A stretch of 63,774 nucleotides of DNA, the filler included. It is 5 parts of 5 records of this genome, joined end to end, with 100 filler letters (N's around TTAATTAATTAA, not from the genome) between each part and the next. Parts side by side here need not be neighbours in the genome. Positions count along the whole stretch, not along the records: positions 17,351 to 24,638 come from SRR20825006_56; 4 more parts are not named here. One strand, written 5' to 3'. This document shows positions 35 through 34,013 of this stretch, piece by piece. Under the pieces are notes generated by a model that saw nothing but the letters and a program-made list of their open reading frames with translations, ran no database searches and was not told where the DNA came from. A program made the position numbers and the translations under genes. How positions within the stretch are numbered: position 1 is the first letter of the stretch; each line of letters starts with the position of its first letter.

Positions 35-37
35 GTC

Positions 38-2993: not shown

Positions 2994-3004
2994 AGGAGAG
3001 TCCC

Positions 3005-3514: not shown

Positions 3515-3529
3515 ACACGCAGGTTGGCG

Positions 3530-3901
3530 TCACGTCTTTCCAGCGTGACGCTCGGTGAGCCGGTCCAAAGCATCCTTTTTACCGAAAGCTTTCCGTGTTT
3601 TTCCAAGCTGAGTCTCACGCCGTTCGGCAATTTGCGCCAAGTCCCTCAAGGCTTGGCGCTTTTCCTTTTCAGCCCACCGATACCAGGCAGAATCGGCCCC
3701 CATCAGGCTCGCCATGTCAAACCCCTCAGACGTTCCAACATGGTGAACACGCTGCGCACGGGCCGCTTCGATCTCTCGCAACTTCGCCTTCGGCCCCTCT
3801 TCTTCGCGCTTGATCGCGGCAAGTTTGGCCAGCTCTGCAGTCAAGGACAACTCTGCAATATCTTTGAGGCTTTTTAGTTTTTTAAGGTCTTTGGACATCA
3901 T
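3530..3901 (-). CDS. Coiled-coil hypothetical protein, possibly FliJ-like export chaperone
   Basis: 123 aa charged helical protein translationally coupled to flhB. Confidence 0.55.
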   Translation of the reverse strand: MMSKDLKKLKSLKDIAELSLTAELAKLAAIKREEEGPKAKLREIEAARAQRVHHVGTSEGFDMASLMGADSAWYRWAEKEKRQALRDLAQIAERRETQLGKTRKAFGKKDALDRLTERHAGKT

Positions 3902-7855: not shown

Positions 7856-8091
7856 CGCGCTGCCTCAAAAAAGTAAAATCCAGTCGAAGAAATTGGGTTG
7901 CACGATTTGGGAGGTGTGGTTTGAAGCGTCGTGATTGAGCGCTGTCTGCGACACTCTGGTCTGAAAGAAAATCAGGCGCTTTGGAAATAAACCATACTCT
8001 CATTGTCTGCTGCAATTCTTGCTACTGTTTCGACGAGACTATGGTGAACGTGGTTTACAAAGAGTGTACGCGAGCCAAACGTTTCATGTTT

Positions 8092-11381: not shown

Positions 11382-11457
11382 ATTTTATGTCCTTAGTCTA
11401 GAATCCAGGTGAGATAACCCTGTCACAAACCTCTTAAAAAAGTCTGTCAAATGCATC

Positions 11458-12087
11458 TTATTCACTTGGGGCATTGGCATTTCTGCCCGCCAAAATGACA
11501 GAAATTGTGTAGGCTGTTTCCGGCTTAAGCCCCGCCATCACGGCACCGGCCGCGTCTGGACGCATACGCCCCAAGAAACCCGCAGCAAAATCGGGCGACA
11601 TCGCCTCAAACAACGCTGCCGCTTCTTTGGGTTTCATCGATTCGTAGACGGTTGTGAGCTTTGCCAAGTCATCCTCAGCCGCAGATTGTGATCGGACCAT
11701 GGTCGCTTCAAGACGCGCTTCCGCTTGTTCTAAAACGCCCATGCTTTCCAGAACTTCAGCTTTCGCGACATCGATTTCTTTCATTTTTTGAGCGACCAAT
11801 AGCTCTTTTTCCTTAACACTCTTTTCACGCTTTAGAAGTACCGCAATCAGCGCCTGAGTTTCCTCATCGGTTTGACAAGCAACCGGAGCAGCCGCCCCAT
11901 GCGATTCTGTTCCCACATCATGCGCTAGATCCGAAACCTCCCGTGCAATTGCAGCCCCGGTGCCCGACGCCAAACGCACCACAGCGGAGGTCAAAAAAAC
12001 CAACGCGATGATCCAAAGAGCCCCACGCCCTGAGCGAATTTTGCGTTTGGGCGTCTTGCCTTTCGCCTTTGTTTTGGGCGCTTTCAT
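11458..12087 (-). CDS. MotE/MgtE-N-family flagellar motility protein
   Basis: Coiled coil followed by VYESMKPKEAAALFEAM repeat typical of the MotE/FlbB family. Confidence 0.75.
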   Translation of the reverse strand: MKAPKTKAKGKTPKRKIRSGRGALWIIALVFLTSAVVRLASGTGAAIAREVSDLAHDVGTESHGAAAPVACQTDEETQALIAVLLKREKSVKEKELLVAQKMKEIDVAKAEVLESMGVLEQAEARLEATMVRSQSAAEDDLAKLTTVYESMKPKEAAALFEAMSPDFAAGFLGRMRPDAAGAVMAGLKPETAYTISVILAGRNANAPSE

Positions 12088-12491
12088 TCTGCGGCCTCCA
12101 CGCGTGTTCTTTGACTCAAAAACAAGGTTTCGCCTTCAATGTTGCCATCTGCCGAACCAGGCCGCGGAGCAACGGACGAAACCACGGTTGGACCAGCTTT
12201 CGGGGCTTCGGGCAAATCATGCATGGAGGCGACCAACAGTTCGAGACGACGCGACACATCCTCAGCGCGCGATGTGAGGTCTTCGAGTTTCACCGCAGAC
12301 CCCGCCGCTGTTTTTTGTGCTTTAATCAATGTTTTGGTCATATCATCCACCTGAGCGGACAAGACGGCAATCGCGCCACCAACACCTTTTTCAAGATCGG
12401 TAAACCGACTGAGCCGGCGAGCAAGAACCGCGCAATACACACCCACGGCGAAGGTCCCGGCGATCATCAAGATATCAGCAATCAGTTCCAT
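12084..12491 (-). CDS. Conserved hypothetical membrane-anchored coiled-coil protein
   Basis: N-terminal TM helix then coiled coil; coupled between fliL and the motE-like gene. Confidence 0.7.
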   Translation of the reverse strand: MELIADILMIAGTFAVGVYCAVLARRLSRFTDLEKGVGGAIAVLSAQVDDMTKTLIKAQKTAAGSAVKLEDLTSRAEDVSRRLELLVASMHDLPEAPKAGPTVVSSVAPRPGSADGNIEGETLFLSQRTRVEAAE

Positions 12492-12501
12492 ATCGGGCTC
12501 C

Positions 12502-13014
12502 TCAATTTACCACGAATTCCATGATGAGAACGTCCTTGATCCGTCCTTCACCCGCAACAATCTGCACCCGCCGCAAGATCTGCGACCGCAACCGCACCAA
12601 GGCAGAGGGATTTTCAAGTTCTGACACTTCAACCGCACGAAGATAGCCGTTCAAAATATCGACAACGCGGGGGAGAAGGGTGATCACCTCTTGCTCGTAC
12701 TGCAAAGGCACTTCCAATTGCGCCTGAAACCGCAGGTGGCGACCGCGCCCGGAGGTATCAATGAGATTGACGATCAAAGGCTCAACAGACACGAAGGCGA
12801 CGCTTGGCAAAAGCGCAAGTGGTTCCCCCTCCAATGCGCTCAATTGCTCTTCTTCATGCCCCCCTGCAGCGCCGAACAACATGCCTGAATAGACGGCGAA
12901 AAATCCCCCGCCGCCCAAAACCAACATCAGGACAACCCCCAGGATCAGGGGGAGTTTCGATTTTTTCTTTGGTTCTTCGTCGAGCTGTTCAGCGTCAGCC
13001 ATGGGTCCATCCAA
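12502..13014 (-). CDS. fliL: Flagellar basal body-associated protein FliL
   Basis: KKKSKLPLILG-TM, PLIVNL, LPRVVDILNGYLR, VLIMEFVVN. Confidence 0.9.
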   Translation of the reverse strand: MDGPMADAEQLDEEPKKKSKLPLILGVVLMLVLGGGGFFAVYSGMLFGAAGGHEEEQLSALEGEPLALLPSVAFVSVEPLIVNLIDTSGRGRHLRFQAQLEVPLQYEQEVITLLPRVVDILNGYLRAVEVSELENPSALVRLRSQILRRVQIVAGEGRIKDVLIMEFVVN

Positions 13015-13051
13015 AAATTTCTTTCTCGAATCCGTTTTATCCTGAAGTTAG

Positions 13052-13066
13052 CTAACCGATTGTTAA
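13052..13066. promoter_or_regulatory. CtrA-box-like site in the divergent fliL/fliF promoter
   Basis: CTAA-CCGATTG-TTAA, one mismatch to TTAA-N7-TTAA; CtrA controls flagellar genes in Rhodobacteraceae. Confidence 0.6.
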
Positions 13067-13129
13067 GGCTCATCAGACATTCCTTAAAACAGACGGGGGC
13101 AGAAGCCCGCACATCTAAGGAGTGACGTC

Positions 13130-14773
13130 TTGCAACAGATCCTCTCTGTTTGGTCCAACCTCGACCCGAAACGCCGGGTGGTTGTCATTGGCGCAACTGT
13201 GCTAATGTTCGCCGCGATTCTCGGGCTGTCTCGGATGGTGACCAAACCTTCCATGGCGCTTTTGTATTCCGGGCTCGAATCGAGTGCGGCCGGCGAGGTT
13301 GTGCAATCGCTTGAGGCGCAAGGCGTGGCCTATGAGATTCGCGGCGGCGCAATCTTTGTCCCCACGAATGCCCGAGATGAGTTGCGCATGACGCTTGCCT
13401 CCGAAGGGCTGCCTGCGAATTCAACCAGCGGATATGAATTGCTTGATTCCCTGTCGGGCTTTGGCACCACGTCACAGATGTTCGACGCGGCATATTGGCG
13501 TGCAAAAGAGGGCGAAATCGCGCGCACGATTGTCTCATCGCCACAAATTCGCTCTGCAAGAGTGCTGATCGCCAATCCCTCCTCGCAGCCCTTCAAACGC
13601 CAAATCGCGGCCTCGGCCTCCGTCACAATCATCACCACCAGCGGCGCCCTCTCCACGGATCAAGCCAAGGCGTTTCGTTATCTCGTCGCCTCTGCGGTCT
13701 CCGGCCTGGCCCCTGAGGACGTGTCGGTGATTGATGGTCGCTCCGGCGTGGTCGTATCAAGCGATGACGCCACAGCAGGGGCATCGTCCAGCACAGACCG
13801 CGCCGATGAACTGCGCCAGAATGTTCAGCGCTTGCTAGAGGCGCGCGTGGGCGTGGGCAAAGCCGTGGTTGAAGTGTCGCTCGAAACGGTGACCGATCAA
13901 GAATCCATTTTCGAACATCGATTCGACCCGGAAGGCCGCGTGGCCATCAGCTCGGAAACCGAAGAGCGTTCCAATTCTTCGCAGGATTCTGGCAATGGAT
14001 CTGTGACAGTCGCCTCCAACCTGCCCAATGGGACCAGTGCCGCAGGCGGTGATTCGAGTTCAAACAACAGCGAAACGCGTGAGCGCGTGAACTATGAGGT
14101 CTCGGAAACCCGCCGTGAAGTTCAACGTGGTCCAGGCGCGATCAAAAGACTGACGGTTGCTGTCTTGGTTGATGGAATCCGAACAGTTGATCCAAATACG
14201 GAGGAAACCATATGGACCCCGCGCAGCGAGGAGGAATTGGCCGCGTTGAGCGCCCTTGTGACCTCCGCCATCGGATTGGATGAGGCTCGTGGCGATCAGA
14301 TCACGATCAAAACGATGGAGTTCGAACCCCTCCTCATTGCAGGAACAGAGGCGCAGAGTTCACTGATTTCCGGGATCAACGTTGATCTGATGTCGATCAT
14401 CCAACTTGCGGTTTTGGCGGTTGTTTCGCTGGTTTTGGGTCTATTTGTGCTGCGTCCGATCCTGTCCAAACCCACTGCTTCTGCCCTTCCGGCCCCAACG
14501 GACTCCGCTGAGCGAAGCGGAATGGACAATATGCTGGCAACGATTCCCATGCCGGAGATGCCGCGCTCCAATGTGCCCGCGCTCAATGGGGAAATTGATG
14601 GCGGCTTTGAATTACCAACCCTTGGTGTGGTTTCAGATTTCGACTTTGGCGACGAAGAATTTGGCATTTCCAATGATCCGGTGAAGCGCCTGAAAAGACT
14701 GATCGAAGACCGTCAGGACGAAACGGTTGAAATCCTGCGTGGCTGGATGGAAGACACGGAGGAGAACGCCTGA
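13130..14773 (+). CDS. fliF: Flagellar MS-ring protein FliF
   Basis: Two TMs, GYELLD-FGTTSQMF, AKEGEIARTI, IKRLTVAVLVDG. Confidence 0.95.
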   Translation: MQQILSVWSNLDPKRRVVVIGATVLMFAAILGLSRMVTKPSMALLYSGLESSAAGEVVQSLEAQGVAYEIRGGAIFVPTNARDELRMTLASEGLPANSTSGYELLDSLSGFGTTSQMFDAAYWRAKEGEIARTIVSSPQIRSARVLIANPSSQPFKRQIAASASVTIITTSGALSTDQAKAFRYLVASAVSGLAPEDVSVIDGRSGVVVSSDDATAGASSSTDRADELRQNVQRLLEARVGVGKAVVEVSLETVTDQESIFEHRFDPEGRVAISSETEERSNSSQDSGNGSVTVASNLPNGTSAAGGDSSSNNSETRERVNYEVSETRREVQRGPGAIKRLTVAVLVDGIRTVDPNTEETIWTPRSEEELAALSALVTSAIGLDEARGDQITIKTMEFEPLLIAGTEAQSSLISGINVDLMSIIQLAVLAVVSLVLGLFVLRPILSKPTASALPAPTDSAERSGMDNMLATIPMPEMPRSNVPALNGEIDGGFELPTLGVVSDFDFGDEEFGISNDPVKRLKRLIEDRQDETVEILRGWMEDTEENA

Positions 14774-15408
14774 TGAAATCTCTTTTCCCGCTGGAAGATT
14801 TCGGTGCTACGCCTAAAAAAGCCCCGACCCGGCAGACCGCGCAAACGCCTGCACCTGCGGCTCCCCCTGCCGGACCCACTCCTGAGGAAATCGAAACCAA
14901 CCGGATGGCCGCCTACGAGCAAGGCTATAAGGCAGGATGGGATGACGCCGCAACGGCAGAAGCCGAAGATCAGGGTCGCATCGGTGCGGAATTTGCCCGT
15001 AATCTTCAGGACTTAGGCTTCACATTTCACGAAGCGCGATCGCACATCATGAAGGCTTTGGAACCGCTTTTGTCCGAAATGGTGGCGAAGGTTTTGCCAC
15101 AATTGGTGGCGGAAACTTTAGGTCAAACAATTTTGGAACATCTCCTCCCAATGGCCGAAGAGGCCTCGGATGCACCGATTCAAATTGTGATCTCTCCCGC
15201 ATCACGTCCGGCAATTCAGCGCCTCATTGACGAGTCGTTAACCTTTCCATTGGAAATCATTGAAGAACCCAGCCTCGCAGACGGGCAGGTCTATCTGCGC
15301 ATGGGAGAGCTGGAAAAAAGGATCGATATGGATGCGGCGGTCGACAAGATCGGCCAAGCCATCAACGCGGTCTATGCATTGAACGAGGAGGCCATGAAAC
15401 ATGGTTGA
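14773..15408 (+). CDS. fliH: FliH-like flagellar assembly protein
   Basis: AYEQGYKAGWDDA GxxxG repeat; downstream of fliF. Confidence 0.75.
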   Translation: MKSLFPLEDFGATPKKAPTRQTAQTPAPAAPPAGPTPEEIETNRMAAYEQGYKAGWDDAATAEAEDQGRIGAEFARNLQDLGFTFHEARSHIMKALEPLLSEMVAKVLPQLVAETLGQTILEHLLPMAEEASDAPIQIVISPASRPAIQRLIDESLTFPLEIIEEPSLADGQVYLRMGELEKRIDMDAAVDKIGQAINAVYALNEEAMKHG

Positions 15409-15679
15409 CGACAGCGACGACACCAATGCGCACCCGTTTTCACAGGTGCCGATTGAAATCATGATCTCCGTCGGAAAGGCGCGGCCTTTGGTCAAGGATT
15501 TGCTCAAACTTCAAAGCGACAGTATTCTGGCGCTGGACCGCACTGTGGACGACCCCGTCGAACTTTATGTCGGCGACAAGTTGATCGCCCGTGGTGAGTT
15601 GCAAGAACTCGACGGTGATCAAGCAGGCCAACTTGCGGTCCGCTTGACCGAAGTGGCCGATCTCAAGAACGGGCTGTGA
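15401..15679 (+). CDS. fliN: FliN/FliM C-terminal (SpoA) motor switch protein
   Basis: VPIEIMISVG, PVELYVGDKLIARGEL. Confidence 0.88.
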   Translation: MVDDSDDTNAHPFSQVPIEIMISVGKARPLVKDLLKLQSDSILALDRTVDDPVELYVGDKLIARGELQELDGDQAGQLAVRLTEVADLKNGL

Positions 15680-16419
15680 GGCTCATGCGGCGTTTTCTAC
15701 TGCCCGCGCTCATTCTTGGCTTGGCGCTTTATGCAGATACGGCGGTTGCACAGGACATCACCCTCAACCTTGGCGAGGATGGATCCCTTGCCACGCGGTC
15801 CATCCAAATCATGCTCTTGGTCACAGTGCTGAGCATTGTGCCCGGCATTGCCGTGACGTTGACCTGTTTCCCGTTCATCGTCACCGTTTTGTCCATCCTG
15901 CGTCAGGCGATTGGCCTACAGCAATCACCCCCAAACATGTTGATGGTCAGCCTCGCGATGTTTTTGACCTATTTCGTGATGGAGCCGGTGTTCATGGAAA
16001 GCTGGACCAACGGGGTCGAACCTTTTGTGAATGGCCAAGTCGAACTGGAACAGGCCTTCGCCCTTTCCGTCGATCCGTTTCGCGGCTTTATGTCAAACCG
16101 GATCGACCCAGATACTTTCTCGCAACTTCAAGAGTTGCGCATGGATTTGGGGGAAATCGACGGCGTCTCCCGCGACGCCCCCTTGTCGCTCTTGGTCCCG
16201 TCTTTCCTTTTGTCAGAAATAGAACGCGCCTTTCAAATCGGGTTTTTAATCTTTCTACCCTTCCTGATCATCGACCTCGTTGTCTCGGCAATTTTGATGT
16301 CGATGGGGATGATGATGGTGCCGCCTGCCATCGTCTCCTTGCCCTTTAAACTGGCGTTTTTCGTCGTCTCAGACGGATGGGCCCTGATTTCAAGCGCATT
16401 GGTGCGCAGCTATTTCTAG
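15676..16419 (+). CDS. fliP: Flagellar export protein FliP
   Basis: LRQAIGLQQSPPN, FLPFLIIDLVV, GMMMVPP. Confidence 0.96.
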   Translation: MRLMRRFLLPALILGLALYADTAVAQDITLNLGEDGSLATRSIQIMLLVTVLSIVPGIAVTLTCFPFIVTVLSILRQAIGLQQSPPNMLMVSLAMFLTYFVMEPVFMESWTNGVEPFVNGQVELEQAFALSVDPFRGFMSNRIDPDTFSQLQELRMDLGEIDGVSRDAPLSLLVPSFLLSEIERAFQIGFLIFLPFLIIDLVVSAILMSMGMMMVPPAIVSLPFKLAFFVVSDGWALISSALVRSYF

Positions 16420-16768
16420 CAGATGGAATGCGCCACCTCGACTGCACGCTCAGGCGGAACTCGACCACCGTTTCGGAAACGCCTGCCGTCATCCGCGATT
16501 TGCCACATAGTCCCAAAGTAGCCGCTTTCTTCGGCAAATGGTTTAAGTGTGCTCGGCATTGGCAAAGCCTAAGCAATACGTTTGATGAAATTGGGCGCGG
16601 CCAGCCCCATGACCTTTTGACGATTGCCCGATTTGATACGGCAATCCTTCCGACAATAGGCCACTGTATCGGCAGGGCAACAAGCTCCGGCGTATCAAGC
16701 GCGATCTCGCTTCGCCAGTTCACATGGGTCTGCCTGTCCCTTGCTGTTCATGTCGGGTGTTCGGCGTC

Positions 16769-16797
16769 TTGCGCCATCCCCCCGGGGAGGTTATTCC
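16769..16797 (+). promoter_or_regulatory. Putative promoter with CsoR/RcnR-type C-tract/G-tract operator
   Basis: TTGCGC-N17-TATTCC; the spacer carries ATCCCCCCGGGGAGGTTAT, resembling CsoR/RcnR/InrS operators; immediately upstream of the repressor gene. Confidence 0.55.
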
Positions 16798-16803
16798 TTG
16801 CAC

Positions 16804-17061
16804 ATGACAAACTCTCACACCCATACAAGCCACCCTAAGGTCGTATCCCGGCTGAAACGTGCCGAAGGGCATTTGCGTTCGGTCATTTCAATGATCGAAG
16901 ACGGGCGGCCCTGTCTGGATGTGGCGCAACAGTTGCAGGCCGTGGAAAGCGCGATCCGAAACGCCAAGCAAGCGTTGATCCATGATCACATGGATCACTG
17001 TCTGGACGCGGATGACAGCCAGGACCGGACGGAACTCAAAGCTATTTCCCGTTATCTCTAG
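16804..17061 (+). CDS. nreA: CsoR/RcnR-family metal-sensing repressor (NreA-like)
   Basis: His-rich N-terminus, RLKRAEGHL, CLDVAQQLQAV, HDHMDHC; start at ATG 16804. Confidence 0.85.
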   Translation: MTNSHTHTSHPKVVSRLKRAEGHLRSVISMIEDGRPCLDVAQQLQAVESAIRNAKQALIHDHMDHCLDADDSQDRTELKAISRYL

Positions 17062-17070
17062 AGGTTTCAG

Positions 17071-17250
17071 ATGTTCGACATCCTGTCCGACCGCACCTAT
17101 CGCCACCTGTTCCTTGCACAGGTGGTGGCGCTTTTGGGCACGGGACTGGCCACGGTCGCGCTTGGGCTTTTGGCCTATGATCTGGCGGGCGACGGGGCGG
17201 CGATGGTGCTGGGCACAGTGTTCACCATCAAGATGGTGGCCTATGTCGGC
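17071..17250 (+). CDS. nreB: MFS transporter, NreB-like (truncated by contig end)
   Basis: YRHLFLAQVVALLGTGLATVALGLLAYDLAG N-terminus, downstream of the nreA-like gene. Confidence 0.75.
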
Positions 17251-17350
17251 NNNNNNNNNNNNNNNNNNNNNNNNNNNNNNNNNNNNNNNNNNNNTTAATT
17301 AATTAANNNNNNNNNNNNNNNNNNNNNNNNNNNNNNNNNNNNNNNNNNNN
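17251..17350. other. Artificial contig linker
   Basis: 44 N + TTAATTAATTAA (stops in all six frames) + 44 N. Confidence 0.98.
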
Positions 17351-17392
17351 ACGTTTTCCGCAACGAAACCATAACCAAGAACGTTAGGCTTA
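17351..17392 (+). repeat. attC-like cassette site 1 (right half; cut by contig start)
   Basis: ACGTTTTCCGCAACGAAACCATAACCAAGAACGTTAGGCTTA, same right-arm consensus as sites 2-4. Confidence 0.75.
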
Positions 17393-17410
17393 ATTTGACA
17401 AAAATCCCGA

Positions 17411-18028
17411 ATGAATGAAAAATTGATAAGTACAATTCGAATTATCGGACAATTGATTTCTGTTTCAATTTTCGGATTAGTTGGTAGTTTATTATTTCAT
17501 TTTAGAATACCAGGAAACGAAACCTATACTGATAATGACGCTGGACCTTTAGCATTAGTGTATGGAATATTCATTTTTATTGGAATTGGACTATTAATAA
17601 ACTCTTTGATTTTAAGACAAAAAAACCATTGGAAAAAATACCGAATTGGAGTATTGATTTTTGTGGTTGGATTTGGATTAGCTGTTTTCATACCTCGAAA
17701 AATAATCAAATGGACTTATTTAGGCGGAAAAGAAATGGAATTTACTAGCATTGAAAATCCTGATTTCATTTGGGTGCAACTTGAACTTTATAAAAACAAT
17801 TACTTTTTGTGTTCTACCTCTTACGGTGGAGAAATGACAATTGAAAATCTAGGTGAATACGAAATAAAGAATAATAATCTTAAATTATCATTTAAAAACG
17901 AGACATCTGAACACGTTAAAAAGTTTTATAAAACATTATCTGAAAATATTGGAACAAATTATAGAATATCTAATGACACTCTGATATGTATGGATTGTGA
18001 AAAAGAAATAAAACTAAAAAAAAACTAA
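17411..18028 (+). CDS. Cassette 1: hypothetical membrane protein (3 TM plus soluble C-terminal domain)
   Basis: 205 aa ORF bracketed by GTTAGGCTTA (17383) and its reverse complement TAAGCCTAAC (18026). Confidence 0.8.
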   Translation: MNEKLISTIRIIGQLISVSIFGLVGSLLFHFRIPGNETYTDNDAGPLALVYGIFIFIGIGLLINSLILRQKNHWKKYRIGVLIFVVGFGLAVFIPRKIIKWTYLGGKEMEFTSIENPDFIWVQLELYKNNYFLCSTSYGGEMTIENLGEYEIKNNNLKLSFKNETSEHVKKFYKTLSENIGTNYRISNDTLICMDCEKEIKLKKN

Positions 18029-18174
18029 GCCTAACACCGCCTATAGTTAATTGCTGCGGTAATCTTCACAATTTATTTGGGCAACTTTGCTATCTTTAAG
18101 TTTGGTAAAATCCCGATAACTATCGGGACTCGCAGACGTTTTCCACAAAGAAACTAAACACAAACCCGTTAACC
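18029..18174 (+). repeat. attC-like cassette site 2
   Basis: GCCTAAC...TATAGTTAATTGC left arm, ...CAAAGAAACTAAACACAAACCCGTTAACC right arm; interior homologous to site 4. Confidence 0.75.
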
Positions 18175-18180
18175 TTTCCT

Positions 18181-19056
18181 ATGAAAATACTATTAGTCTT
18201 AATGTTACTGACTTTAATGGGTTGCCAAAGTAAAAATTACGATTTAGCGTATGTAACTGACCGAGACAACACATTGGATATTTGTATTACAAATTCTGAA
18301 AACAAAGAAATAATTAATTTAACCAATTCTGATATTACTGAATACAACCTTACTTGGTCCAAAGATGGGACGGAAATCTTTTATACAAGCTATGAAAAAA
18401 CTGGACGAAAGGTTAAGAGTGTAAATGTTTCTGATAAATCTATAAAAGTTTTCATTAATGATTCAACAATACAATCTGTTAATGATGTTTCAAAGGACAA
18501 TGAACGAATGATAATTTCATCGAGTGAACATCACAAAAAAGGAGAACTCTATCTATATGATATTCCAACTAATTCCAAAATACGCATAACAAACAACGAA
18601 TTTTATGAAGCTGGTGCTAAATTTTCGCCTGATGAAAAAACGGTTGTAGTTAGTATTCAGACCAAAGCAAGTGATTCAATAAATCATTCTGGTACTGCGG
18701 AAATTTTTGAAATAAAATTATCCGATCTGTCACTTAATAGATTAACTGATTTAGAAGGATTTAATGCACTACCTGAATATTCACCTGATGGAGAATTAAT
18801 CACCTTCCATCATTGTGACAATGGAAAGTGCGATATCATGATGATGGAATTAGACGGTTTGAATCTGGTGAACTTAACGAATGGAAAAGATGACAACCGC
18901 TGGCCTCGATGGTCCCCAGATGGGAAATGGATCTCTTTTACCAAAACGATCGATAATAATTCTGATATCTATTTTATTTCTAAAGATGGTAAAAGAGTAA
19001 AGCCTATTATCACTACCGAATTTAGAGACGAAATAGCAATATTTAAACCAAAATAG
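18181..19056 (+). CDS. Cassette 2: TolB-like beta-propeller lipoprotein (PD40 repeats)
   Basis: Lipobox LMGC; WSKDG, FSPDE, YSPDG, WSPDG repeats. Confidence 0.85.
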   Translation: MKILLVLMLLTLMGCQSKNYDLAYVTDRDNTLDICITNSENKEIINLTNSDITEYNLTWSKDGTEIFYTSYEKTGRKVKSVNVSDKSIKVFINDSTIQSVNDVSKDNERMIISSSEHHKKGELYLYDIPTNSKIRITNNEFYEAGAKFSPDEKTVVVSIQTKASDSINHSGTAEIFEIKLSDLSLNRLTDLEGFNALPEYSPDGELITFHHCDNGKCDIMMMELDGLNLVNLTNGKDDNRWPRWSPDGKWISFTKTIDNNSDIYFISKDGKRVKPIITTEFRDEIAIFKPK

Positions 19057-19063
19057 AATAACA

Positions 19064-19171
19064 GGCTAACTACGTGTATAGCTCATTGCAGTGAAATTTA
19101 CCATCTTTAATTCGTTGCGGAACAATACAGAAAACCATCAGCAACGAAACCATACCCCAAGACCGTTGTAA
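19064..19171 (+). repeat. attC-like cassette site 3
   Basis: GGCTAAC...TATAGCTCATTGC / GCAACGAAACCATACCCCAAGACCGTTGTAA imperfect inverted arms. Confidence 0.78.
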
Positions 19172-19183
19172 AACATTCAAGAA

Positions 19184-19570
19184 ATGAATTTTAGCAAATT
19201 AATCATATTACTTCTTCTAATTGAATCCTTTAGCCTTTCTGCTCAAGAAAAGTTAGAAATTGGACAGCATATTTATAAAGACAAACTTACTTTCATTTCC
19301 TTAAACCTAAACAACGAGTTCGAGTATCTAAAGTATTATAATTGGTCTCCTTTGACCATTGAGGAAAAACGAAAAGCTGAAAAAAATGAAAATCAATCCT
19401 ACGGAACAATCGGGTATGTTTCAGGTGCTAAAGGAAAAGGAAATTATGAACTAAAAGATGGAAAACTAATTTTAAAATTTTCGGAATTTAAGAAGTATAT
19501 GGATAATAAAACCGACTTTAATGCTGAAACTAAAACAATGGTATTTATCATTTCGGAATTTATTAAATAA
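19184..19570 (+). CDS. Cassette 3: secreted hypothetical protein
   Basis: Signal peptide ending SLSA-Q; bracketed by GTTGTAAAA (19165) and TTTTACAAC (19577). Confidence 0.8.
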   Translation: MNFSKLIILLLLIESFSLSAQEKLEIGQHIYKDKLTFISLNLNNEFEYLKYYNWSPLTIEEKRKAEKNENQSYGTIGYVSGAKGKGNYELKDGKLILKFSEFKKYMDNKTDFNAETKTMVFIISEFIK

Positions 19571-19578
19571 AAGACTTT

Positions 19579-19710
19579 TTACAACACCAGCCATATTTCA
19601 TTGCTGCAGCGATCCTCACCCTTTATTTGAGCAACTTTTCTATCTTTAGGTTTATCGTAAATGTCCTGCGGACGTTTTCCGCAAAGAAACCATAGCCAAG
19701 ACCGTTGTAA
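19579..19710 (+). repeat. attC-like cassette site 4
   Basis: TTACAAC...CATATTTCATTGC / GCAAAGAAACCATAGCCAAGACCGTTGTAA. Confidence 0.78.
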
Positions 19711-19715
19711 TACAT

Positions 19716-20246
19716 TTGAGAAGAACACTTTACATAGCATTAATCGGATTGACAATTTTTACGAGTTGTCAAAAAAACAAACAATTAAATTTAGTTCAGC
19801 AAACCGATTTGAAAGGAATATTTGAAATAGGAATTCCAGAAAACTGGCATATCGAAAAACAAGATTCTGAAAACTCTTCTTTTTTGATTGCAAGTGACAT
19901 CACAAAAACAGTTGATAAAACTCTAGTTGTTGATTTGACTTGGAATGATTGGGAAATATATCTGAACGAACATTTCAAACGCTCACTCGACTCGATAAGT
20001 AATCTATCTGGATTCAAGACATCTAATCAAAAGTTTTACTCTCGTGGAGAATTTGACATTTACGAATATGAGTTAGTTGGAACTGATTCTTTAAATAATC
20101 TTGGAGTAAAATCTAAAAACTATTATTTCAAGAAAAGCGGACAGAAAGGTTCTCTAAATTTAAATGTTAGAGTAAATGATAGGGATTTTAATCAAAAAGA
20201 TTCGCTTCTGATTGACAGAATCATTGAAACAATTAAAAGAAAATAA
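19716..20246 (+). CDS. Cassette 4: hypothetical lipoprotein
   Basis: Lipobox FTSC; bracketed by GTTGTAATAC (19704) and GTGTTACAAC (20251). Confidence 0.8.
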   Translation: MRRTLYIALIGLTIFTSCQKNKQLNLVQQTDLKGIFEIGIPENWHIEKQDSENSSFLIASDITKTVDKTLVVDLTWNDWEIYLNEHFKRSLDSISNLSGFKTSNQKFYSRGEFDIYEYELVGTDSLNNLGVKSKNYYFKKSGQKGSLNLNVRVNDRDFNQKDSLLIDRIIETIKRK

Positions 20247-20540
20247 AAACGTGTTACAACAACGGTAACTGTTGCACAAGACTATAAAAGGTAACATTAC
20301 AAAAATAAATAAGCCACTCTAAGCGGTTTTTCTTTTTTGGATCAACTTGGTTTTAGACCAAATTCAGAACTCTTAAAACCGATGTATCGCTGTTTGTTAG
20401 TCTGTTTTTCAGTAAAAAAAATGAAGAGAGTATTCCTGCTCCGCTTTTACAGGTACAATTTTTCCGTCCCCCACACCACCGTAGGCACTTGTATAAGAAT
20501 TCCTATATTTAGCAATTACAATTTTTAGATACTTAGCCCT

Positions 20541-22925
20541 ATGCGTATTATTCTGATTGCTGTGTTGATGCTTATTTTAGGCTGTACCAAAACCGCTACG
20601 CCTCCCTCCTCTTTTAAAACTCTTGCTGCAAAGAGCCCTTCTATTGCCGGAAAGACAGCATACCTTGCTTCGCCTTTTGTAACCGCCGGAAATCGCGTAT
20701 ATATGGTAGGACATCAAGATGGCTCTTTTCCTGATCTGGGATGGCATATTAAAGGCGAAATGGGTGGCATTTGGGATCATCCCATCAAACTTATGGATGG
20801 CTTTGATCTTGCAGTACTACACGAAAACGATACCTTAACACTCAATAATGCCGATCGCTTTGTAAACTATCCGTTTACCAATATGCACGAGTTCGCTTGG
20901 GCTGAAAAAAACCTCAACATACAACGCTGGCAATTTGTACCCGACGATACCGAAGGGATCATCATTCAACTGGCAATTGAAAATACCGGTGAAGCCAAAG
21001 AGGTTCAACTTGATTTCACCGGAATAAGCGATCTGCGACCTACTTGGCTGGGAGATCGCACAGGAATGATCGACAGTAAAGATCAAGCTGTTTTTGACGA
21101 GCAAAATAAGCTATGGAAGGTAAAAGATCAGAATAACCCATGGCACGTACTTTTTGGATCTTCGGTAAAACCTACTGCAACGGCACAGACCTCAACTCAG
21201 GATGCTACAACACAAAGCAGCTTGAGTCACACGCTGCAGCTTCCTGCGGCTTCTACTACAGTTTTCACCTATTATATCGCAGGCTCGTACCAATCGGAAG
21301 CTGCAGCACTGGCGACCTATAAAAAAATACAAGAGCGATCAACCGACTTATTTCAAGCTAAAAAAGAGCGCTACGAGCAATTAGCTTCACAATCAAAACT
21401 CAGTATTCCTGATGAATCTATCGCACAAGCTTTTGAGTGGTTAAAATACAATAGCGATTGGCTGGTACGCCGCGTGCCGGAAGTTGGTACCGGTATTTCG
21501 GCGGGGATTCCTGATTATCCATGGTGGTTTGGGGTAGACAGCGAGTATGCCTTAAAAGGACTTATGGCCATTGGTCAGACCAAAACTGTATATTCAAGCA
21601 TTCGTCTGCTCGATAGCCTTTCAGAAGCTACTAATGGCAACGGCCGCATTGTGCACGAAGTCTCTACTAACGGTGCGGTATTCAATCCTGGAAACATCAA
21701 CGAGACCCCGCAGTTTGCGTCGCTTATTTGGGAAGTATATCGCTGGAATGGCGACCGAAAGTTTTTAGAAACCTACTACCCTTCCATCAAAAAAGGTATG
21801 CACTGGCTACTGACCGAAAAGGATACTGATCAAAATTTGTTTCCCGACGGCTACGGAATGATGGAAATTCACGGCCTCGACAGCGAAATGATCGATGTGG
21901 CGAGCTATACGCAACGGGCACTGGTAGATGCTGCTAAGATCGCTGAAGTTTTAAAGGATACCGCAACTGCGGAAAATTATAAGGCGAAGGCGGTTGTATT
22001 AAAAGAACAAATAAATACGCAATTCTGGTCTGAAGCATTCAACTCGTATGCCGATTTTATAGGCACCGATGCGCAGGCTTTACATCTTATTGAAGATGCG
22101 ATCGTACGTGCAGACACGCTTAAGAAACCCTGGGCAGTTGCCGAATTGAAAGAGACGCGCGAGTACATCAAGAATACTCCTTCAACGGCAGCGCGACCTT
22201 TTGTATTGTATCATAATTGGGTGGTAAATACACCTATGGAAATGGGAATCGCTCCTCCCGAAAAAGCAAAAAAAGCATTAAAAACAGCGGAGCAATTTGT
22301 AAATCCCTTCGGAGTTTTTGTGACGGGTATTGACCGTGACGATTCCGCAGGAAGTGATGAGGGTTCTTTTAAAGGCAGTTCGAGTTTTAGTTATACAGGC
22401 GCCGTAATGACCTTGCCCACAAGCGTACAAGCAATTGCCGAAAACAACTACGGAAATCCCGATGCTGCGCTAGATTACATCAAACGTATGACCCGCTCGT
22501 TTAGTTTTGCTTTTCCCGGTAGTATGTATGAAGTCTCGCCAGATTACGGGATGATCAGCCAGGCCTGGAATATTTATGGCTTTGCGATTCCTATCGTGCA
22601 GCAGTTTTTTGGTATCAATCCTGATGCTGCGAGCAAAACCGTGACGGTAAAACCACAAATGCCTAAAGATTGGGACGATGTCGCTCTGGAAAATGTAAAA
22701 ATTAGAGACAATGCTGTTTCGGTCTTCTATACCAAAACAAATAACCAAATAAAATTACGTGTCACGCAAACGCAACCAGATTGGACGCTAAAGCTTATTT
22801 TGCCTAAAGAACTAGACGGAAAGTCATTCCGTAACAGTTCATCTTCGAGTCAAACTACAACCGACGAAAATAATTTTATACTTTCCGGTAAAGGAGAAGT
22901 TGAATTAATTTTAGAGGAAGAATAG
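20541..22925 (+). CDS. Lipoprotein glycoside hydrolase with (alpha/alpha)6 barrel (glycogen-debranching/amylo-alpha-1,6-glucosidase-like)
   Basis: Lipobox ILGC; AGIPDYPWWFGVDS, NETPQF and QAWN motifs of GDE-type six-hairpin glycosidases. Confidence 0.75.
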   Translation: MRIILIAVLMLILGCTKTATPPSSFKTLAAKSPSIAGKTAYLASPFVTAGNRVYMVGHQDGSFPDLGWHIKGEMGGIWDHPIKLMDGFDLAVLHENDTLTLNNADRFVNYPFTNMHEFAWAEKNLNIQRWQFVPDDTEGIIIQLAIENTGEAKEVQLDFTGISDLRPTWLGDRTGMIDSKDQAVFDEQNKLWKVKDQNNPWHVLFGSSVKPTATAQTSTQDATTQSSLSHTLQLPAASTTVFTYYIAGSYQSEAAALATYKKIQERSTDLFQAKKERYEQLASQSKLSIPDESIAQAFEWLKYNSDWLVRRVPEVGTGISAGIPDYPWWFGVDSEYALKGLMAIGQTKTVYSSIRLLDSLSEATNGNGRIVHEVSTNGAVFNPGNINETPQFASLIWEVYRWNGDRKFLETYYPSIKKGMHWLLTEKDTDQNLFPDGYGMMEIHGLDSEMIDVASYTQRALVDAAKIAEVLKDTATAENYKAKAVVLKEQINTQFWSEAFNSYADFIGTDAQALHLIEDAIVRADTLKKPWAVAELKETREYIKNTPSTAARPFVLYHNWVVNTPMEMGIAPPEKAKKALKTAEQFVNPFGVFVTGIDRDDSAGSDEGSFKGSSSFSYTGAVMTLPTSVQAIAENNYGNPDAALDYIKRMTRSFSFAFPGSMYEVSPDYGMISQAWNIYGFAIPIVQQFFGINPDAASKTVTVKPQMPKDWDDVALENVKIRDNAVSVFYTKTNNQIKLRVTQTQPDWTLKLILPKELDGKSFRNSSSSSQTTTDENNFILSGKGEVELILEEE

Positions 22926-23780
22926 ATGATTTATTTTAAACCGTGCACAATGAAAGCTAGCCTAGTACTCCTACTCTTCTGTAGCTTTAGCCTTCTTGGT
23001 CAAAAGCTTCCTAAAAAACTGAGTGAAACCGATTTTACTATCGGAAAAACTATAAGTATTCAGTCTGATATTTTAAAAGAAAAACGGGTGCTTAACGTGT
23101 ATCTCCCGCAGCATTATTCGGCTGATAGCACCAAAACATATCCGGTCATTTATTTACTCGACGGTTCTAAAGACGAAGACTTTATACATATAGCCGGGAT
23201 CGTTCAGTTTGGTTCGTTCTCTTGGATCAATATGCTTCCAGAAACGATTGTCGTAGGCATCGCCAATGTAGACCGAAAAAGAGATTTCACCTACCCTTCT
23301 CAAAATACCCTAGATCAAGAGGAATTTCCCACTTCGGGAAAATCGGCACATTTTATTCAATTTTTAGAGGAAGAATTACAGCCCTTTATAGCGGCCAATT
23401 TTAAAACTTCAGAAGAAAAAACGCTTATTGGTCAATCTTTAGGCGGACTTCTAGCCACAGAGATCCTCTTTAAAAAGCCGAAGCTTTTTGATAATTATGT
23501 TATTGTGAGTCCGAGTTTGTGGTGGGATGATGAGAAACTTTTGAATTCGGCAACGCCTTTTTTTGCTTCTTCAAAATCTATTTTTATCGCAGGTGGCAAA
23601 GAAGGTGAAGTGATGGAACGTACGGCAAAAGCACTATACACCAAACTGAATCAACAACAAGATGAAAAGACGCGTGTCTTCTATGAATTTCTTGAAGATA
23701 AAGATCACGGTGATGCTTTGCACATCGAGGTATATCACGCGTTTGAAAAGATTTTTGGTTCGGAGAAAAACACCCAATAA
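22926..23780 (+). CDS. Alpha/beta-hydrolase esterase (IroE/Fes-like)
   Basis: YPVIYLLDG, GQSLGG nucleophile elbow, SPSLWW. Confidence 0.88.
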   Translation: MIYFKPCTMKASLVLLLFCSFSLLGQKLPKKLSETDFTIGKTISIQSDILKEKRVLNVYLPQHYSADSTKTYPVIYLLDGSKDEDFIHIAGIVQFGSFSWINMLPETIVVGIANVDRKRDFTYPSQNTLDQEEFPTSGKSAHFIQFLEEELQPFIAANFKTSEEKTLIGQSLGGLLATEILFKKPKLFDNYVIVSPSLWWDDEKLLNSATPFFASSKSIFIAGGKEGEVMERTAKALYTKLNQQQDEKTRVFYEFLEDKDHGDALHIEVYHAFEKIFGSEKNTQ

Positions 23781-23794
23781 AACACTTCCATTTT

Positions 23795-24535
23795 ATGATC
23801 AAAATTATATCTATTTTCAGTATTGCCCTTCTCCTAACAAGTTGCAACACTCAAAGTAAAAAGACAGAAGTCGCTACTCAAGAAAATACAACAAGCACAG
23901 ACACACTCACCAAACATCTAAAGCCTTTCAACCCCGAATTACCCTCTATTGGATTGCTGATGTATAACGGCGTTTTACAAAGTGAGGTGGTTGCAACTTC
24001 AGATGTGTTTGCAAAACCTACGGAAGCAGGTGAGCAACTCTTTAACGTGATTACCATTGCTGAAACCACCAACCCGATCACTACCGAAGAAGGCTTGCAT
24101 CTCGTTCCTGATTATACTATTGAAAATTGCCCAAAACTGACCGCGCTATTTGTACCCAGCGCGTATGATATGTATGCGCAGGTGCATAATGAAGCGCTTG
24201 TGAATTTCATTAAGCAGAAAAATGAAGAAACCCAATATACGGTGAGTAATTGTGCTGGAGCTCAACTTATAGGCGCATCGGGTATTGCAAAAGGCCATAA
24301 GATCGTTACCTGGATTGGCGGCGGAACACAACTACAAAAAGACTACCCTGAACTGCTCGTGCAAAATGACAGCTTAGTCACTTTTGTAGAAGATGGTAAA
24401 TTTTTATCTTCTAACGGAAATTTAGCGAGTTATATTTCGGCCTTAGAACTGTTAGAAAAAATGACCGATGTACAACACCGTGAATTTGTAGAAAGCTACC
24501 TGTACTTAGACCGACTTCAAAATTGGGAAAAGTAG
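23795..24535 (+). CDS. DJ-1/PfpI-family lipoprotein
   Basis: Lipobox LTSC; LVPDYT, VSNCAGA, FVEDGKFLSSNG. Confidence 0.85.
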   Translation: MIKIISIFSIALLLTSCNTQSKKTEVATQENTTSTDTLTKHLKPFNPELPSIGLLMYNGVLQSEVVATSDVFAKPTEAGEQLFNVITIAETTNPITTEEGLHLVPDYTIENCPKLTALFVPSAYDMYAQVHNEALVNFIKQKNEETQYTVSNCAGAQLIGASGIAKGHKIVTWIGGGTQLQKDYPELLVQNDSLVTFVEDGKFLSSNGNLASYISALELLEKMTDVQHREFVESYLYLDRLQNWEK

Positions 24536-24638
24536 TTCAGTGATCGCCTTGCTTAACGTTAGCATTCTCGTTAACTCCCTCAGGGCAAGCCTATAAGGCA
24601 TTGGTTGAAAACGAATTTTCAATTTCGAGGCATCCCGA

Positions 24639-24738: not shown

Positions 24739-25229
24739 GTCGCACCATGGGCCTGGGCACAATCCTCAATCACAAAAAGCCCGTGCTCATCGGCCAAATT
24801 CATCATGCCATCCATGTCACAAGGCCAACCTGCCAGGTGAACACAAATAACCGCTTTGGTCTTGGCCGATAACACTGCCGCTACGGTTTCCGGAGTGATG
24901 TTTTGGGTATCAGCATCGACATCGGCAAAAACAGGAATTGCCCCGGCGTTAATCACCGCCGTTGCTGATGCCAGGAATGTGCGGGGAGTCACCACCACTT
25001 CATCCCCTTCGCCGATCCCCAGCCCTTTCAAGGCAAGATCGAGAGCGACGGAGCCATTGGCCACAGCAATGGCATATTCTGTACCGGCGAAGTCCGCAAA
25101 TTCCCTCTCGAATTCACGACATTCCTGTCCCGTCCAGTAATTCACCTTGTTGGAAAGCAATACACGCTGTACCGCATCAGCCTCTTCCTGGGTATAGGAG
25201 GGCCAGGGAGAGAAAGGACCGTTAAGCAT
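24739..25229 (-). CDS. DegT/DnrJ/EryC1/StrS sugar aminotransferase (N-terminal part; truncated)
   Basis: ANGSVALDLAL, VHLAGWPCDMD, IEDCAQAHGA. Confidence 0.92.
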
Positions 25230-25267
25230 AAAATCTTCTCAGTTGTGCAATCAGTAAGTTCTGCCAG

Positions 25268-25918
25268 TCAGCCCGAAACAGTCGCAAGTATGTAACGTAA
25301 ATCGCCAAAAAAAGACCACTCGCGGATATACTGCAGATTAATCTGCACCTTATCGGGATAAATCACTTCGCGGTTATACTGCTCGGGGTCGTCCTGCGCA
25401 GCCAGGATTTCCTCTTCATCACGATATTTCAACGTCGCAGGGCCAGTGATGCCGGGACGTAAAGACAGTACAGCCCTCTCCACACCCGTCAGCTTGTCAG
25501 CATATCCGGGCACATCCGGGCGCGGCCCGACAAAGCTCATGTGACCCAGCAGAACATTCCAAAGCTGCGGCAACTCGTCAATTTTGGTTTTTCGAAAAAA
25601 ACGTCCCAGGGGCGTAATCCGTGGATCACCGGAACGCGTCACTGTAGTAGTGGTTCTGCTATCCGGCCACATGGTTTTGATCTTTACCACACGAATGATA
25701 TTGCCATCCTGGCCCACACGATTCTGGATAAAAAACCCGTTGCTGCGTGTATCAAGCGACGCCGCAAGGAAAGCAATCAGGATCAACCACCATGAAACGA
25801 GAAGACCCAGCAAGGCCGCAGAAAAGTCAAAAGTACGCTTTATCATCGCCTGCGAAGGTGTCAGTGAAGGCGCCATATATTCCATTTCAGAGATAGCCAT
25901 AACGTTTAAGCGTTTCAC
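25268..25918 (-). CDS. Bacterial sugar transferase (initiating phosphoglycosyl transferase, PglC-like)
   Basis: KRTFD, DPRITPLGRFFRKTKIDELPQLWNVL.G.MSFVGPRP. Confidence 0.92.
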   Translation of the reverse strand: MKRLNVMAISEMEYMAPSLTPSQAMIKRTFDFSAALLGLLVSWWLILIAFLAASLDTRSNGFFIQNRVGQDGNIIRVVKIKTMWPDSRTTTTVTRSGDPRITPLGRFFRKTKIDELPQLWNVLLGHMSFVGPRPDVPGYADKLTGVERAVLSLRPGITGPATLKYRDEEEILAAQDDPEQYNREVIYPDKVQINLQYIREWSFFGDLRYILATVSG

Positions 25919-26750
25919 CCGTTAATGCTTCGAGGCGAGCCACTTCCTCCTCACCCAACGCTTTTCGCCCTTTACCAAGGCTGCCATTGGAAACTCCAGC
26001 CACAGCAGCCTGAATCAAATCTGACGGAGCCTTACAACCAAGAAAATCAAAGATTCTCTCTAATTCCGGTGCCGGATCAGAAACAAAATCTTCGTAACGA
26101 ACCCGAATTACCCTCTCTGGTTCAATTTGAGAAAGATCACTGTCAGCCTTCTCAACGCAACGTTGCCATTGCAGGGCGCAGACCTCATTCAGGGTATGCT
26201 TCCCAAGAATCTCATCCATGTTATCGAGTTTCGGCCCCCAGAATGCCAAGCGCTTCTCCCGGGAGAACACTCGATAAATGCGACTCCAGAAATAGCGTAA
26301 ACCGTAGTACGGCAAATCCGTCAACGGCACAAACCGGACCTTTTCCATAAGGTAGGGAATGTCCAACTTGGCCGTCCAACGCAATTTGGCTGACCCCGTA
26401 GCATCAATACCATCACGGTAAATATAGACGTAACGAGCCTCGGGCAGCACCTTGTTTATGAAAGGAACGCGTAAACAGCTGGCACAGGTTTTCTCCACCA
26501 CGATCCGGGCATTCTGCGTACACCGAATATCCTCGAAGCGAGCCCTGATATAAGCCGCTACAGCGGGTGTCGCCCTGTCTGCGGGGATCTCGTCGGACGG
26601 ATATCGGACGTTACCATGACGCCAGATATAATTGATCTCATCACAGGGCCAAGTGCCGATACCCTCAAATGAAGTGAGCACATCACGCAGCATGTTGGTG
26701 CCCGATCTGGGTGCACCGATAATTACCAAATCCATATTTTGCATCATCAA
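25887..26750 (-). CDS. Sulfotransferase family protein
   Basis: 5'-PSB loop IIGAPRSGTNML, EKT, YIYRDG, RYEDFV. Confidence 0.88.
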   Translation of the reverse strand: MMMQNMDLVIIGAPRSGTNMLRDVLTSFEGIGTWPCDEINYIWRHGNVRYPSDEIPADRATPAVAAYIRARFEDIRCTQNARIVVEKTCASCLRVPFINKVLPEARYVYIYRDGIDATGSAKLRWTAKLDIPYLMEKVRFVPLTDLPYYGLRYFWSRIYRVFSREKRLAFWGPKLDNMDEILGKHTLNEVCALQWQRCVEKADSDLSQIEPERVIRVRYEDFVSDPAPELERIFDFLGCKAPSDLIQAAVAGVSNGSLGKGRKALGEEEVARLEALTGETLKRYGYL

Positions 26751-29111: not shown

Positions 29112-29114
29112 CAA

Positions 29115-30236: not shown

Positions 30237-30302
30237 AAAAATTCCTTCTTTCTCATCCAGCCCATACCTCAGTAGGGGCAAGCATGCATGACGAACCTGG
30301 TC

Positions 30303-33994: not shown

Positions 33995-34013
33995 AAATCA
34001 ATTCCAGAAATGG

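Follow-up and report, generated by a model that had tools for sequence, protein, structure and literature searches.

A 7.3-kb contig (positions 17351-24638) of the DNA analysed here, a 63.8-kb stretch that we call the window, begins with four co-oriented single-gene cassettes on the + strand (17351-20260), set apart by related sites of 100-138 nt. We consider it very probable that what is seen here is the distal portion of such an array in a marine bacterium of the Flavobacteriaceae, integron-like in kind and run by a dedicated tyrosine recombinase that resembles both IntI and XerA, and its elements are almost certainly site-specific gene cassettes. The case is built on the anatomy and covariation of the sites, the complementarity of the two ends of each cassette, the linkage of arrays to a recombinase gene in relatives, the replacement of a cassette between strains at the GTT of a site, and the sharing of single cassettes between genera.

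In the mechanism that we propose, each unit would consist of one compact open reading frame followed by a site of ~100-140 nt, whose two arms would pair into a long imperfect hairpin. A dedicated tyrosine recombinase would insert and excise circular cassettes by cutting at G|TT, and because the circles would cross over at this point, the bases that follow GTT at the start of a cassette would complement those that precede AAC at its far end. The first cassette of a complete element would adjoin an attI-like junction, tens of bases from the recombinase gene, and a TAnnTTTG-like box in many sites may drive the cassette downstream.

Cassettes, sites and complementary ends

The window consists of five contigs (1-17250, 17351-24638, 24739-39617, 39718-55571 and 55672-63774) joined by N44-TTAATTAATTAA-N44 spacers, and their GC contents, from ~29% to 59%, probably represent more than one organism. 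Since it is a chain of unrelated contigs, the left end of the array, which lies at the very start of the contig 17351-24638, is a contig edge; the array is cut short by the contig end, not by biology. This contig has no match in the nearest genome (G001), which matches other contigs of the window. Its features are as follows.

17251-17350, no strand: contig joiner (N44-TTAATTAATTAA-N44), not biology; the DNA upstream (GC ~55%) is another contig
17351-17385, +: site A, 3′ arm only (…GCAACGAAACCATAACCAAGAAC-GTT), GTT at 17383-17385; cut by the contig edge
17411-18028, +: cassette 1 reading frame, 205 residues; hydrophobic N-terminal half; no Pfam family above cut-off; ends GTTAGGCTTA / TAAGCCTAAC
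18033-18170, +: site B, 138 nt; AAC at 18033-18035, GTT at 18168-18170; 66.4 bits with our covariance model R1
18181-19056, +: cassette 2 reading frame, 291 residues; PD40 beta-propeller repeats; lipoprotein-like N-terminus (…LMGC); ends GTTAACCT / AGGCTAAC (5/7)
19068-19167, +: site C, 100 nt; a short form without part of the interior; 66.4 bits
19184-19570, +: cassette 3 reading frame, 128 residues; signal-peptide-like N-terminus; no Pfam family; ends GTTGTAAAA / TTTTACAAC
19583-19706, +: site D, 124 nt; 97.1 bits; strain variants part at 19706-19710, in the GTT core
19716-20246, +: cassette 4 reading frame, 176 residues, TTG start; lipoprotein-like N-terminus (…FTSC); no Pfam family; ends GTTGTAATAC / GTGTTACAAC
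20251-20283, +: terminal remnant, the AAC-side box of cassette 4 and then a few site-like bases; 11.1 bits, E=0.14
20284-20466, +: variable tail, which leads from the array into the conserved flank; the related contig L104 has sequence unrelated to it at this place
20541-24535, +: chromosomal flank outside the array, with a glycoside-hydrolase-like gene, an esterase and DJ-1/PfpI genes; higher GC

An earlier note on this DNA, made from the letters alone, had described four unrelated, co-oriented reading frames between related elements, and the coordinates and motifs bear it out. The four proteins have no Pfam family in common, that of cassette 2 being the only one with a match (PD40). As read from the translations, three of the four N-termini are signal-peptide-like or lipoprotein-like and one is hydrophobic. 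No relatives of the four proteins occur in the other array loci that we fetched, and a search of 401 sampled genomes gives no relative of the flank protein above 66% identity.

The arm motifs hold likewise: the left arm reads AAC-N6-YATA-N4-ATTGC in all three full sites of the window, and the right arm GCAAMGAAACCATA..CCAAGAMCGTT in three of four, the exception being site B, whose right arm has diverged and which has an extra internal hairpin. Over all copies, the arms follow the consensus [var7]AAC-AAC-GGCTAT-A-GTTC-A-TTGC … GCAA-C-GAAAC-C-ATAGCC-AAGACC-GTT[var7], and in the alignment across genera they enclose, in order, a first hairpin, a T-rich box and a second hairpin. AAC is present in 203 and GTT in 205 of 249 nhmmer matches, most of the others stopping short of that column. 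The integron core GTTRRRY fits just 12 of 200 sites across the family (RYYYAAC fits 12 of 196) and one of the four cores in the window, the last as had been reported; the observed core is GTT-R-B-V….

Cassette ends were compared over the seven variable bases after GTT and the seven before the next AAC. Complementarity in cassettes 1-4 of the window is 7/7, 5/7, 6/7 and 6/7. For related loci, we took the intervals between consecutive co-oriented nhmmer sites in which GTT and AAC were both aligned, dropping two loci (L018 and L037) that duplicate L075 and L077; 87 of these 135 intervals are complementary at six or more of the seven positions, 58 of them perfectly. Because shuffled pairings of the 135 cassette ends average 2.6/7 and reach at least six with P ~0.03, the four window values together lie far beyond chance. 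The two ends of one and the same site attain six or more matches in 4 of 168 cases. Among intervals shorter than 1.5 kb, the proportion is 78 of 97, and longer intervals probably hide undetected sites.

The 87 intervals validated in this manner are compact. Their longest reading frame is co-oriented with the array in 79, the median coding fraction is 0.93, and in the median the start codon lies 25 nt past GTT and the stop 15 nt ahead of AAC. The repeats therefore follow gene boundaries instead of being scattered, and the gene-specific end complementarity that had been noticed in four cassettes is general. As such, the original observation is confirmed, and its interpretation as cassette capture is supported. 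In many cassettes (19707-19725 of the window, and others in L010, L007 and L057), GTT is followed by six variable bases and then by AAT(T)TGAGAAA just before the start codon, a conserved leader that is part of the cassette rather than of the site.

The array in related strains

A single metagenome contig, L104, carries a 30-base word of cassette 1, and it is 97.1% identical to the window over 17351-19708 and 95.5% over 20467-21969. Since it has nine sites, the window holds the last four cassettes of the array only; L104 continues upstream past the window edge, where it has the complete site A together with six more sites and cassettes. Its array starts at …TTGATATAACAA|GTTAGGCTTT, and the first cassette ends in AAAGCCTAAC, a perfect 10-base complement. 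This start junction resembles those that stand right after recombinase genes in three other loci (L035, L041 and L096). The 4 kb upstream of it contain an AraC-type regulator, a hydrolase and a DUF6266 gene. With an attI-like start but no recombinase detectable nearby, the array is CALIN-like; it would need a copy of the recombinase elsewhere in the genome, or else be a recent relic. Among the cassettes upstream of the window edge, the one at L104:4938-5888 matches PDC-S15 of PADLOC (E=1.2e-116, full length, FRG domain) and the one at L104:6916-8391 matches PDC-M36A of the same collection (E=1e-23), which makes both candidate anti-phage defence genes.

The blocks of identity are separated in the window by cassette 4 and its tail (19709-20466), and in L104 by an unrelated segment of 639 nt with a reading frame of its own and its own complementary ends (GTTGTGCGTA / TACGCACAAC). 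The left breakpoint of this exchange falls in the GTT core of site D, and it does so again in public metagenome runs. In run X15, depth is ~141 on cassettes 1-3, 123-162 on the flank and 1.4-3.3 on cassette 4, and a contig with a depth of 147 runs from 19708 to 20334 by way of ~820 other letters; in run X5, one contig joins 19708 to 20494 and another carries cassette 4. Cassette 4 is accordingly missing from L104 and from the dominant strain of X15, and cassette order is not fixed, the last cassette being replaced in L104 and in two runs with the break at the same GTT. The shared flank resumes at 20467 in L104, at 20334 in X15 and at 20494 in X5.

Further variation is found inside the array. 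Ahead of the left arm of site B, each of the four runs has different loose ends, and site bins in X4 are 7-8 times deeper than their surroundings, which indicates several more cassettes with near-identical arms in these runs. The run evidence consists of contigs whose joint sides are 29-32 letters on a repeated arm, and it is the unique flank side that bears the weight of the argument. Joints that go back (X3, X15) and one that skips 1558 letters (X4) were considered as circle junctions and are better explained by other cassettes with near-identical site arms. Cassettes are also shared across genera: two adjacent ones in locus L008 have their nearest copies in Hanstruepera marina (94.6%, 754 nt) and Winogradskyella endarachnes (88%, 1084 nt), and the similarity to both genomes stops at the sites.

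These comparisons bear on whether the window's array, in a system once active, has lost its recombinase and no longer moves. No recombinase lies within 4 kb of the attI-like start in L104, sites B and C have diverged (66 bits against 97-160 in typical sites) and the terminal site is degenerate; the last 'site' (20251-20290), where the range given in the earlier note ends, is an AAC-side box only. However, strains with flanks 95-97% identical part at the GTT of site D, where a whole cassette differs between them, and the ends are still complementary at 5-7 of 7 positions. A dead array is thus unlikely.

The site family and its linked recombinase

A scan with the right-arm pattern, restricted to one genome per species, returned 73 loci, of which 63 carry an element of ~125 nt, nearly all of them in Flavobacteriaceae genera by title (Winogradskyella, Maribacter, Algibacter, Hanstruepera, Lutibacter, Tamlana and Christiangramia among them). 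Seven Vibrionaceae matches (Vibrio, Photobacterium, Veronia) and three others are chance matches that lack the element, the seven lying in a coding-looking stretch conserved among them. Within the loci, nhmmer finds 249 copies, up to 10 co-oriented per 8 kb, and R1 gives 389 matches in 921 kb. A covariance-model scan of the family, as the earlier note had envisaged, matches 120 of 151 sampled Flavobacteriaceae genomes versus 19 of 151 phylum-wide, at most 21 candidates being scored per genome. Rfam has no family matching the window contig or three array loci. Copies are clustered in arrays, all in the same orientation within an array, and extend up to ~58 kb downstream of a recombinase gene (G095, G063). 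Outside Flavobacteriaceae, a 259-kb contig titled as a Balneolaceae metagenome-assembled genome (L046) has at least three typical sites of up to 152.7 bits, either a transfer across phyla or a binning error.

In two complete genomes, Maribacter litopenaei (NZ_CP104205; locus L075) and Tamlana fucoidanivorans (NZ_CP074074; locus L077), the site copies form clusters, each headed by a tyrosine recombinase gene.

L075:11040-12107, divergent from the cassettes: recombinase of Maribacter litopenaei, PF00589 + PF13495
L077:15022-16152, co-directional with the cassettes: recombinase of Tamlana fucoidanivorans, PF00589 + PF13495

The first Maribacter cassette, which adjoins the recombinase gene, is 371 nt long, has the ends GTTATGTGGC / GCCACATAAC and is followed by a diverged site; its sole long reading frame (L075:10514-10888, +) runs opposite to the array. 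Maribacter litopenaei has two separate arrays (G003:C1:912134-939898 and 1718316-1741945), each with its own recombinase, one co-directional (375 residues) and one divergent (355 residues), 46% identical to each other, and a third paralogue at ~1601726.

Among curated families, the recombinase scores best with NF040815 (XerA/integron integrase; 208.6 bits, below its cut-off of 220) and then with TIGR02249 (integron integrase; 193.6 bits, below its cut-off of 265), whose match falls into two pieces, at model positions 5-180 and 237-315. Ranked against solved structures, Pyrococcus XerA comes first (232 bits for the profile against PDB 4a8e), then VchIntIA, then E. coli XerD. In the alignment with VchIntIA (2a3v), residues ~208-246, about 40 positions that correspond to the IntI-specific insertion, have no counterpart in the recombinase. 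None of five array-bearing genomes has a TIGR02249 match above cut-off, and the array-linked genes match at positions 5-180 and 237-315 alone.

Thirty family members share R213, K238, H302, R305, H328 and Y337 without exception, six columns that we take to be the catalytic R-K-H-R-H-Y. They also share a near-invariant, IntI-like C-terminal I..SPLD tail, and an extra N-terminal stretch of 70-100 residues in which a WS…(W/Y)Y pattern is conserved. This N-terminal domain matches no Pfam family, and in the protein atlas it returns unnamed Bacteroidota clusters alone, with scores up to 0.85. In public records the proteins carry generic names ('tyrosine-type recombinase/integrase', 'XerD'), apart from a single 'Integron integrase' in a vent metagenome. 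The array-bearing genomes also contain, at other places, Xer-like genes of ~300 residues, of which the array-linked gene is a paralogue. At E<=1e-45, the family is found in 136 of 201 sampled genomes. Some matches contain in-frame stops, and in the one that was checked (L098) the stop is the gene's own, the alignment reading through it. Two further members, in L082 and L086, are ~300 residues long and lack the N-terminal domain; the former has weak or distant sites only, and the latter has no sites nearby and stands beside two more tyrosine recombinase genes.

Linkage was assessed in 20 recombinase loci, picked solely by how long the contig was and so as to cover a range of identities. In 12 of them, sites are found on the expected side, and in three more the contig ends less than 1 kb away on that side. 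Between recombinase gene and first site, we then looked for a GTT together with the complement of that site's AAC-side box. Such a junction is present in 18 of 23 recombinase loci (two of them, L083 and L099, being one place fetched twice), at 28-154 nt from the gene in 14 of the 18 and typically 28-65 nt past the stop codon in the co-directional type. Examples of these attI-like junctions are …TTGATATAACAC|GTT, …CATATAAACAA|GTT, or a short palindrome and then TAT|GTT. Across 151 genomes, 93 have both recombinase and sites and 19 have neither, an odds ratio of 5.5 with relatedness ignored. Many recombinase matches stand 150-300 bp from a contig end (G037:C83:149-1201, G032:C54:163-1236, G053:C43:156-1232), as expected if assemblies break in the adjoining repeats, and this suggests that the arrays routinely break flavobacterial draft assemblies. 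Judged from these gene neighbourhoods, the linked recombinase very likely moves the cassettes. The earlier expectation of a consistently linked tyrosine recombinase therefore holds in relatives, where the enzyme lacks the IntI-specific insertion, and fails beside the window's own array as seen in L104.

Folding of the sites and relation to known systems

The fold of the site was evaluated on the 150 best R1 matches, reduced to 148 distinct rows, with a structure of 34 pairs that was supplied by hand because RNAalifold gave just 7 pairs on the first alignment. Over these pairs, 88.8% of cells can pair versus 75.2% in shuffles, and in 27 of the 34 pairs both partners have changed. The covariation score of 0.297 compares with 0.104 in shuffles (none of 500 as high), and with 0.03-0.08 for slid partners. 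Arm pairs ~100 nt apart change type outright, with G-C/U-A in 88/44, C-G/G-C in 85/39 and G-C/A-U in 81/40 rows, and the two internal hairpins covary as well. Non-Watson-Crick cells in the arms are A·C in 38 cases and G·T in 6, with 23 of the 38 coming from two pairs; this excess of A·C is what wobble tolerance on the bottom strand would give, a hint in the same direction as the conserved bulged base and the unequal spacers (3 and 6 nt) of the consensus, which may reflect a folded-bottom-strand polarity. On balance the substrate seems somewhat likelier than not to be folded single strands, the bottom strand probably.

The same measurements speak to the idea that the cassettes are double-stranded modules moved in the manner of Xer recombination (IMEX, pdif), by housekeeping XerC/D or by the linked paralogue, with no hairpin involved. 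The recombinase does match XerA best (208.6 bits with NF040815, 232 bits for the profile against 4a8e), and the IntI insertion, which contacts extrahelical bases, has no equivalent in it. In contrast, the two arms covary at a distance of ~100 nt, and cassette-specific complementarity of the R-box would have no role in a duplex site; the sites of an array are all direct, unlike those of pdif modules, and the A·C excess, with its two dominant pairs, looks as if the bottom strand folds. We regard movement as duplex modules as quite improbable.

Most sites have, at a fixed place, a TAnnTTTG-like box, strictly in 35 of 148 (shuffles ~7.6; other strand 7) and in relaxed form in 99 of 148. We take TAnnTTTG to be the Bacteroidetes -7 box, and the sites may give each cassette its own promoter, a lead rather than a result. 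The box, the two internal covarying hairpins and a cross-genus conservation that is unusually high for attC sites would suit intergenic regulatory or REP-like elements spread by copying, with the cassette look as a by-product. Such elements, however, do not predict the GTT/AAC end complementarity of 87 of 135 intervals or arrays that start beside a recombinase gene; nor do they predict whole-cassette replacement at GTT or site-bounded cassettes common to several genera. Unlike REP/BIME repeats, the copies stand in arrays that start next to a tyrosine recombinase gene, a comparison made with no search for RAYT-type transposases. We give this explanation very little credence.

That this is an ordinary integron, acted on by a canonical IntI from another place in the genome, the Xer-like gene nearby being incidental, accords with the attC layout of the sites (AAC…GTT, paired arms, cassette-specific ends) and with the want of a recombinase beside the window's own array, but it is scarcely credible given that five of five array-bearing genomes yield no TIGR02249 match above cut-off, that the first junction lies 28-154 nt from a Xer/IntI-like gene in 14 loci, and that GTTRRRY occurs in just 12 of 200 sites.

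Several observations weigh against an integron-like array run by a dedicated recombinase, which remains the reading that we prefer. Messier and Roy reportedly found in 2001 that the additional domain is necessary for IntI activity, and the flavobacterial recombinase has no counterpart of it. The whole window and 14.5 kb of L104 contain no recombinase gene. Five of the 20 recombinase loci have no sites or weak partial matches only; sites occur without a recombinase at E<=1e-45 in 27 of 151 genomes, and the recombinase without a site in 12. Because the last cassette is without a full site and the right boundary of the exchange varies (20334, 20467, 20494), that exchange is no clean two-site event. 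Minimum-free-energy folds of the window's own sites are no better than shuffles (z -0.04 to -1.85), and the covariation alignment was fitted to the model from related copies, so that the shuffles overstate its significance.

Sedentary chromosomal integrons, such as the Vibrio superintegron, have homogeneous attC sites of the VCR type. The flavobacterial arrays are like them in being long, chromosomal and composed of compact, co-oriented, mostly single-gene cassettes, and in their ~60-140-nt sites with AAC…GTT ends and paired arms, lineage-homogeneous and complementary in the cassette-specific outer boxes. They also share an attI-like junction beside a tyrosine recombinase gene (in the relatives) and candidate anti-phage cassettes. 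The differences lie in the enzyme, in which the IntI insertion has no equivalent, whose TIGR02249 score of 193 bits is below the cut-off of 265 and which has an extra N-terminal domain of ~70-100 residues, and in the sites, whose core is GTT-R-B-V… and not GTTRRRY, whose complementary box measures 10-11 bp with spacers of 3 and 6 nt, and whose interior keeps its sequence across genera and includes two covarying hairpins as well as the TAnnTTTG-like box. As far as sequence can tell, the arrays thus depart from integrons on the two points that define them, the additional domain of IntI and the core consensus.

In Treponema and in the Chlorobium group, the integrase gene is oriented as the cassettes are. 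Most flavobacterial arrays resemble these in starting just past the 3′ end of a co-directional recombinase gene, and a second flavobacterial type is divergent, as in classical integrons; unlike the flavobacterial system, the Treponema and Chlorobium elements have a true IntI with the additional domain. Same-orientation integrases are mentioned for Spirochaetota in the accessible text of a preprint (10.1101/2022.02.06.479319). The window's array, with at least nine sites by way of L104, an attI-like start and no recombinase nearby, is comparable to the CALINs described in the available portion of Cury et al. (2016; PMC4889954); these are defined by sites that match the attC model of IntegronFinder, and the likeness here rests on R1 sites.

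Among Xer systems, sites are short duplexes, and the pdif modules of Acinetobacter plasmids are flanked by inverted sites. Xer/dif recombinases and archaeal XerA are the best sequence relatives of the recombinase core. The flavobacterial sites differ from Xer and pdif sites in being hairpin-type, direct in orientation and 100-140 nt long, a comparison made with no search for dif-like motifs, and the enzyme is a dedicated paralogue beside the array.

In the text available to us, Cury et al. (2016; PMC4889954) define IntI by its additional domain, and together with the accessible part of the IntegronFinder 2.0 preprint they leave Bacteroidota almost free of integrons on that basis. That part of the preprint mentions, for Bacteroidetes, earlier In0 elements and one complete integron, in Salinibacter ruber. 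The consulted portion of Smyshlyaev et al. (2021) calls the insertion 'not fully conserved' in their integron-like subgroup. We found no description of cassette arrays or att-type sites in Flavobacteriaceae in a literature search that left most subscription journals and supplements outside, and the supplementary tables of IntegronFinder may list Bacteroidota elements.

IntI, with its additional domain, is the basis on which integrons are defined, sought and counted, and here most of the genomes sampled from a major marine family contain an integron-like system; a census that takes IntI as its criterion probably misses these arrays. For the broadest reading, the arguments seem to us evenly balanced: a family-wide and still active form of integron-type gene capture, whose IntI/XerA-like enzyme lacks the additional domain and has a new N-terminal domain instead, and which would be a lineage sister or ancestral to integrons, or else the same mechanism invented a second time. 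If the linked enzyme does recombine hairpin sites, the additional domain would be no prerequisite for the integron mechanism, and the origin of integrons from Xer-like enzymes would become directly testable. Flavobacterial draft assemblies may, in that case, break at these repeats. The host bacteria are central to algal-polysaccharide turnover, and they would then hold a large hidden pool of mobile cassettes that encode secreted proteins, lipoproteins and candidate phage-defence genes.

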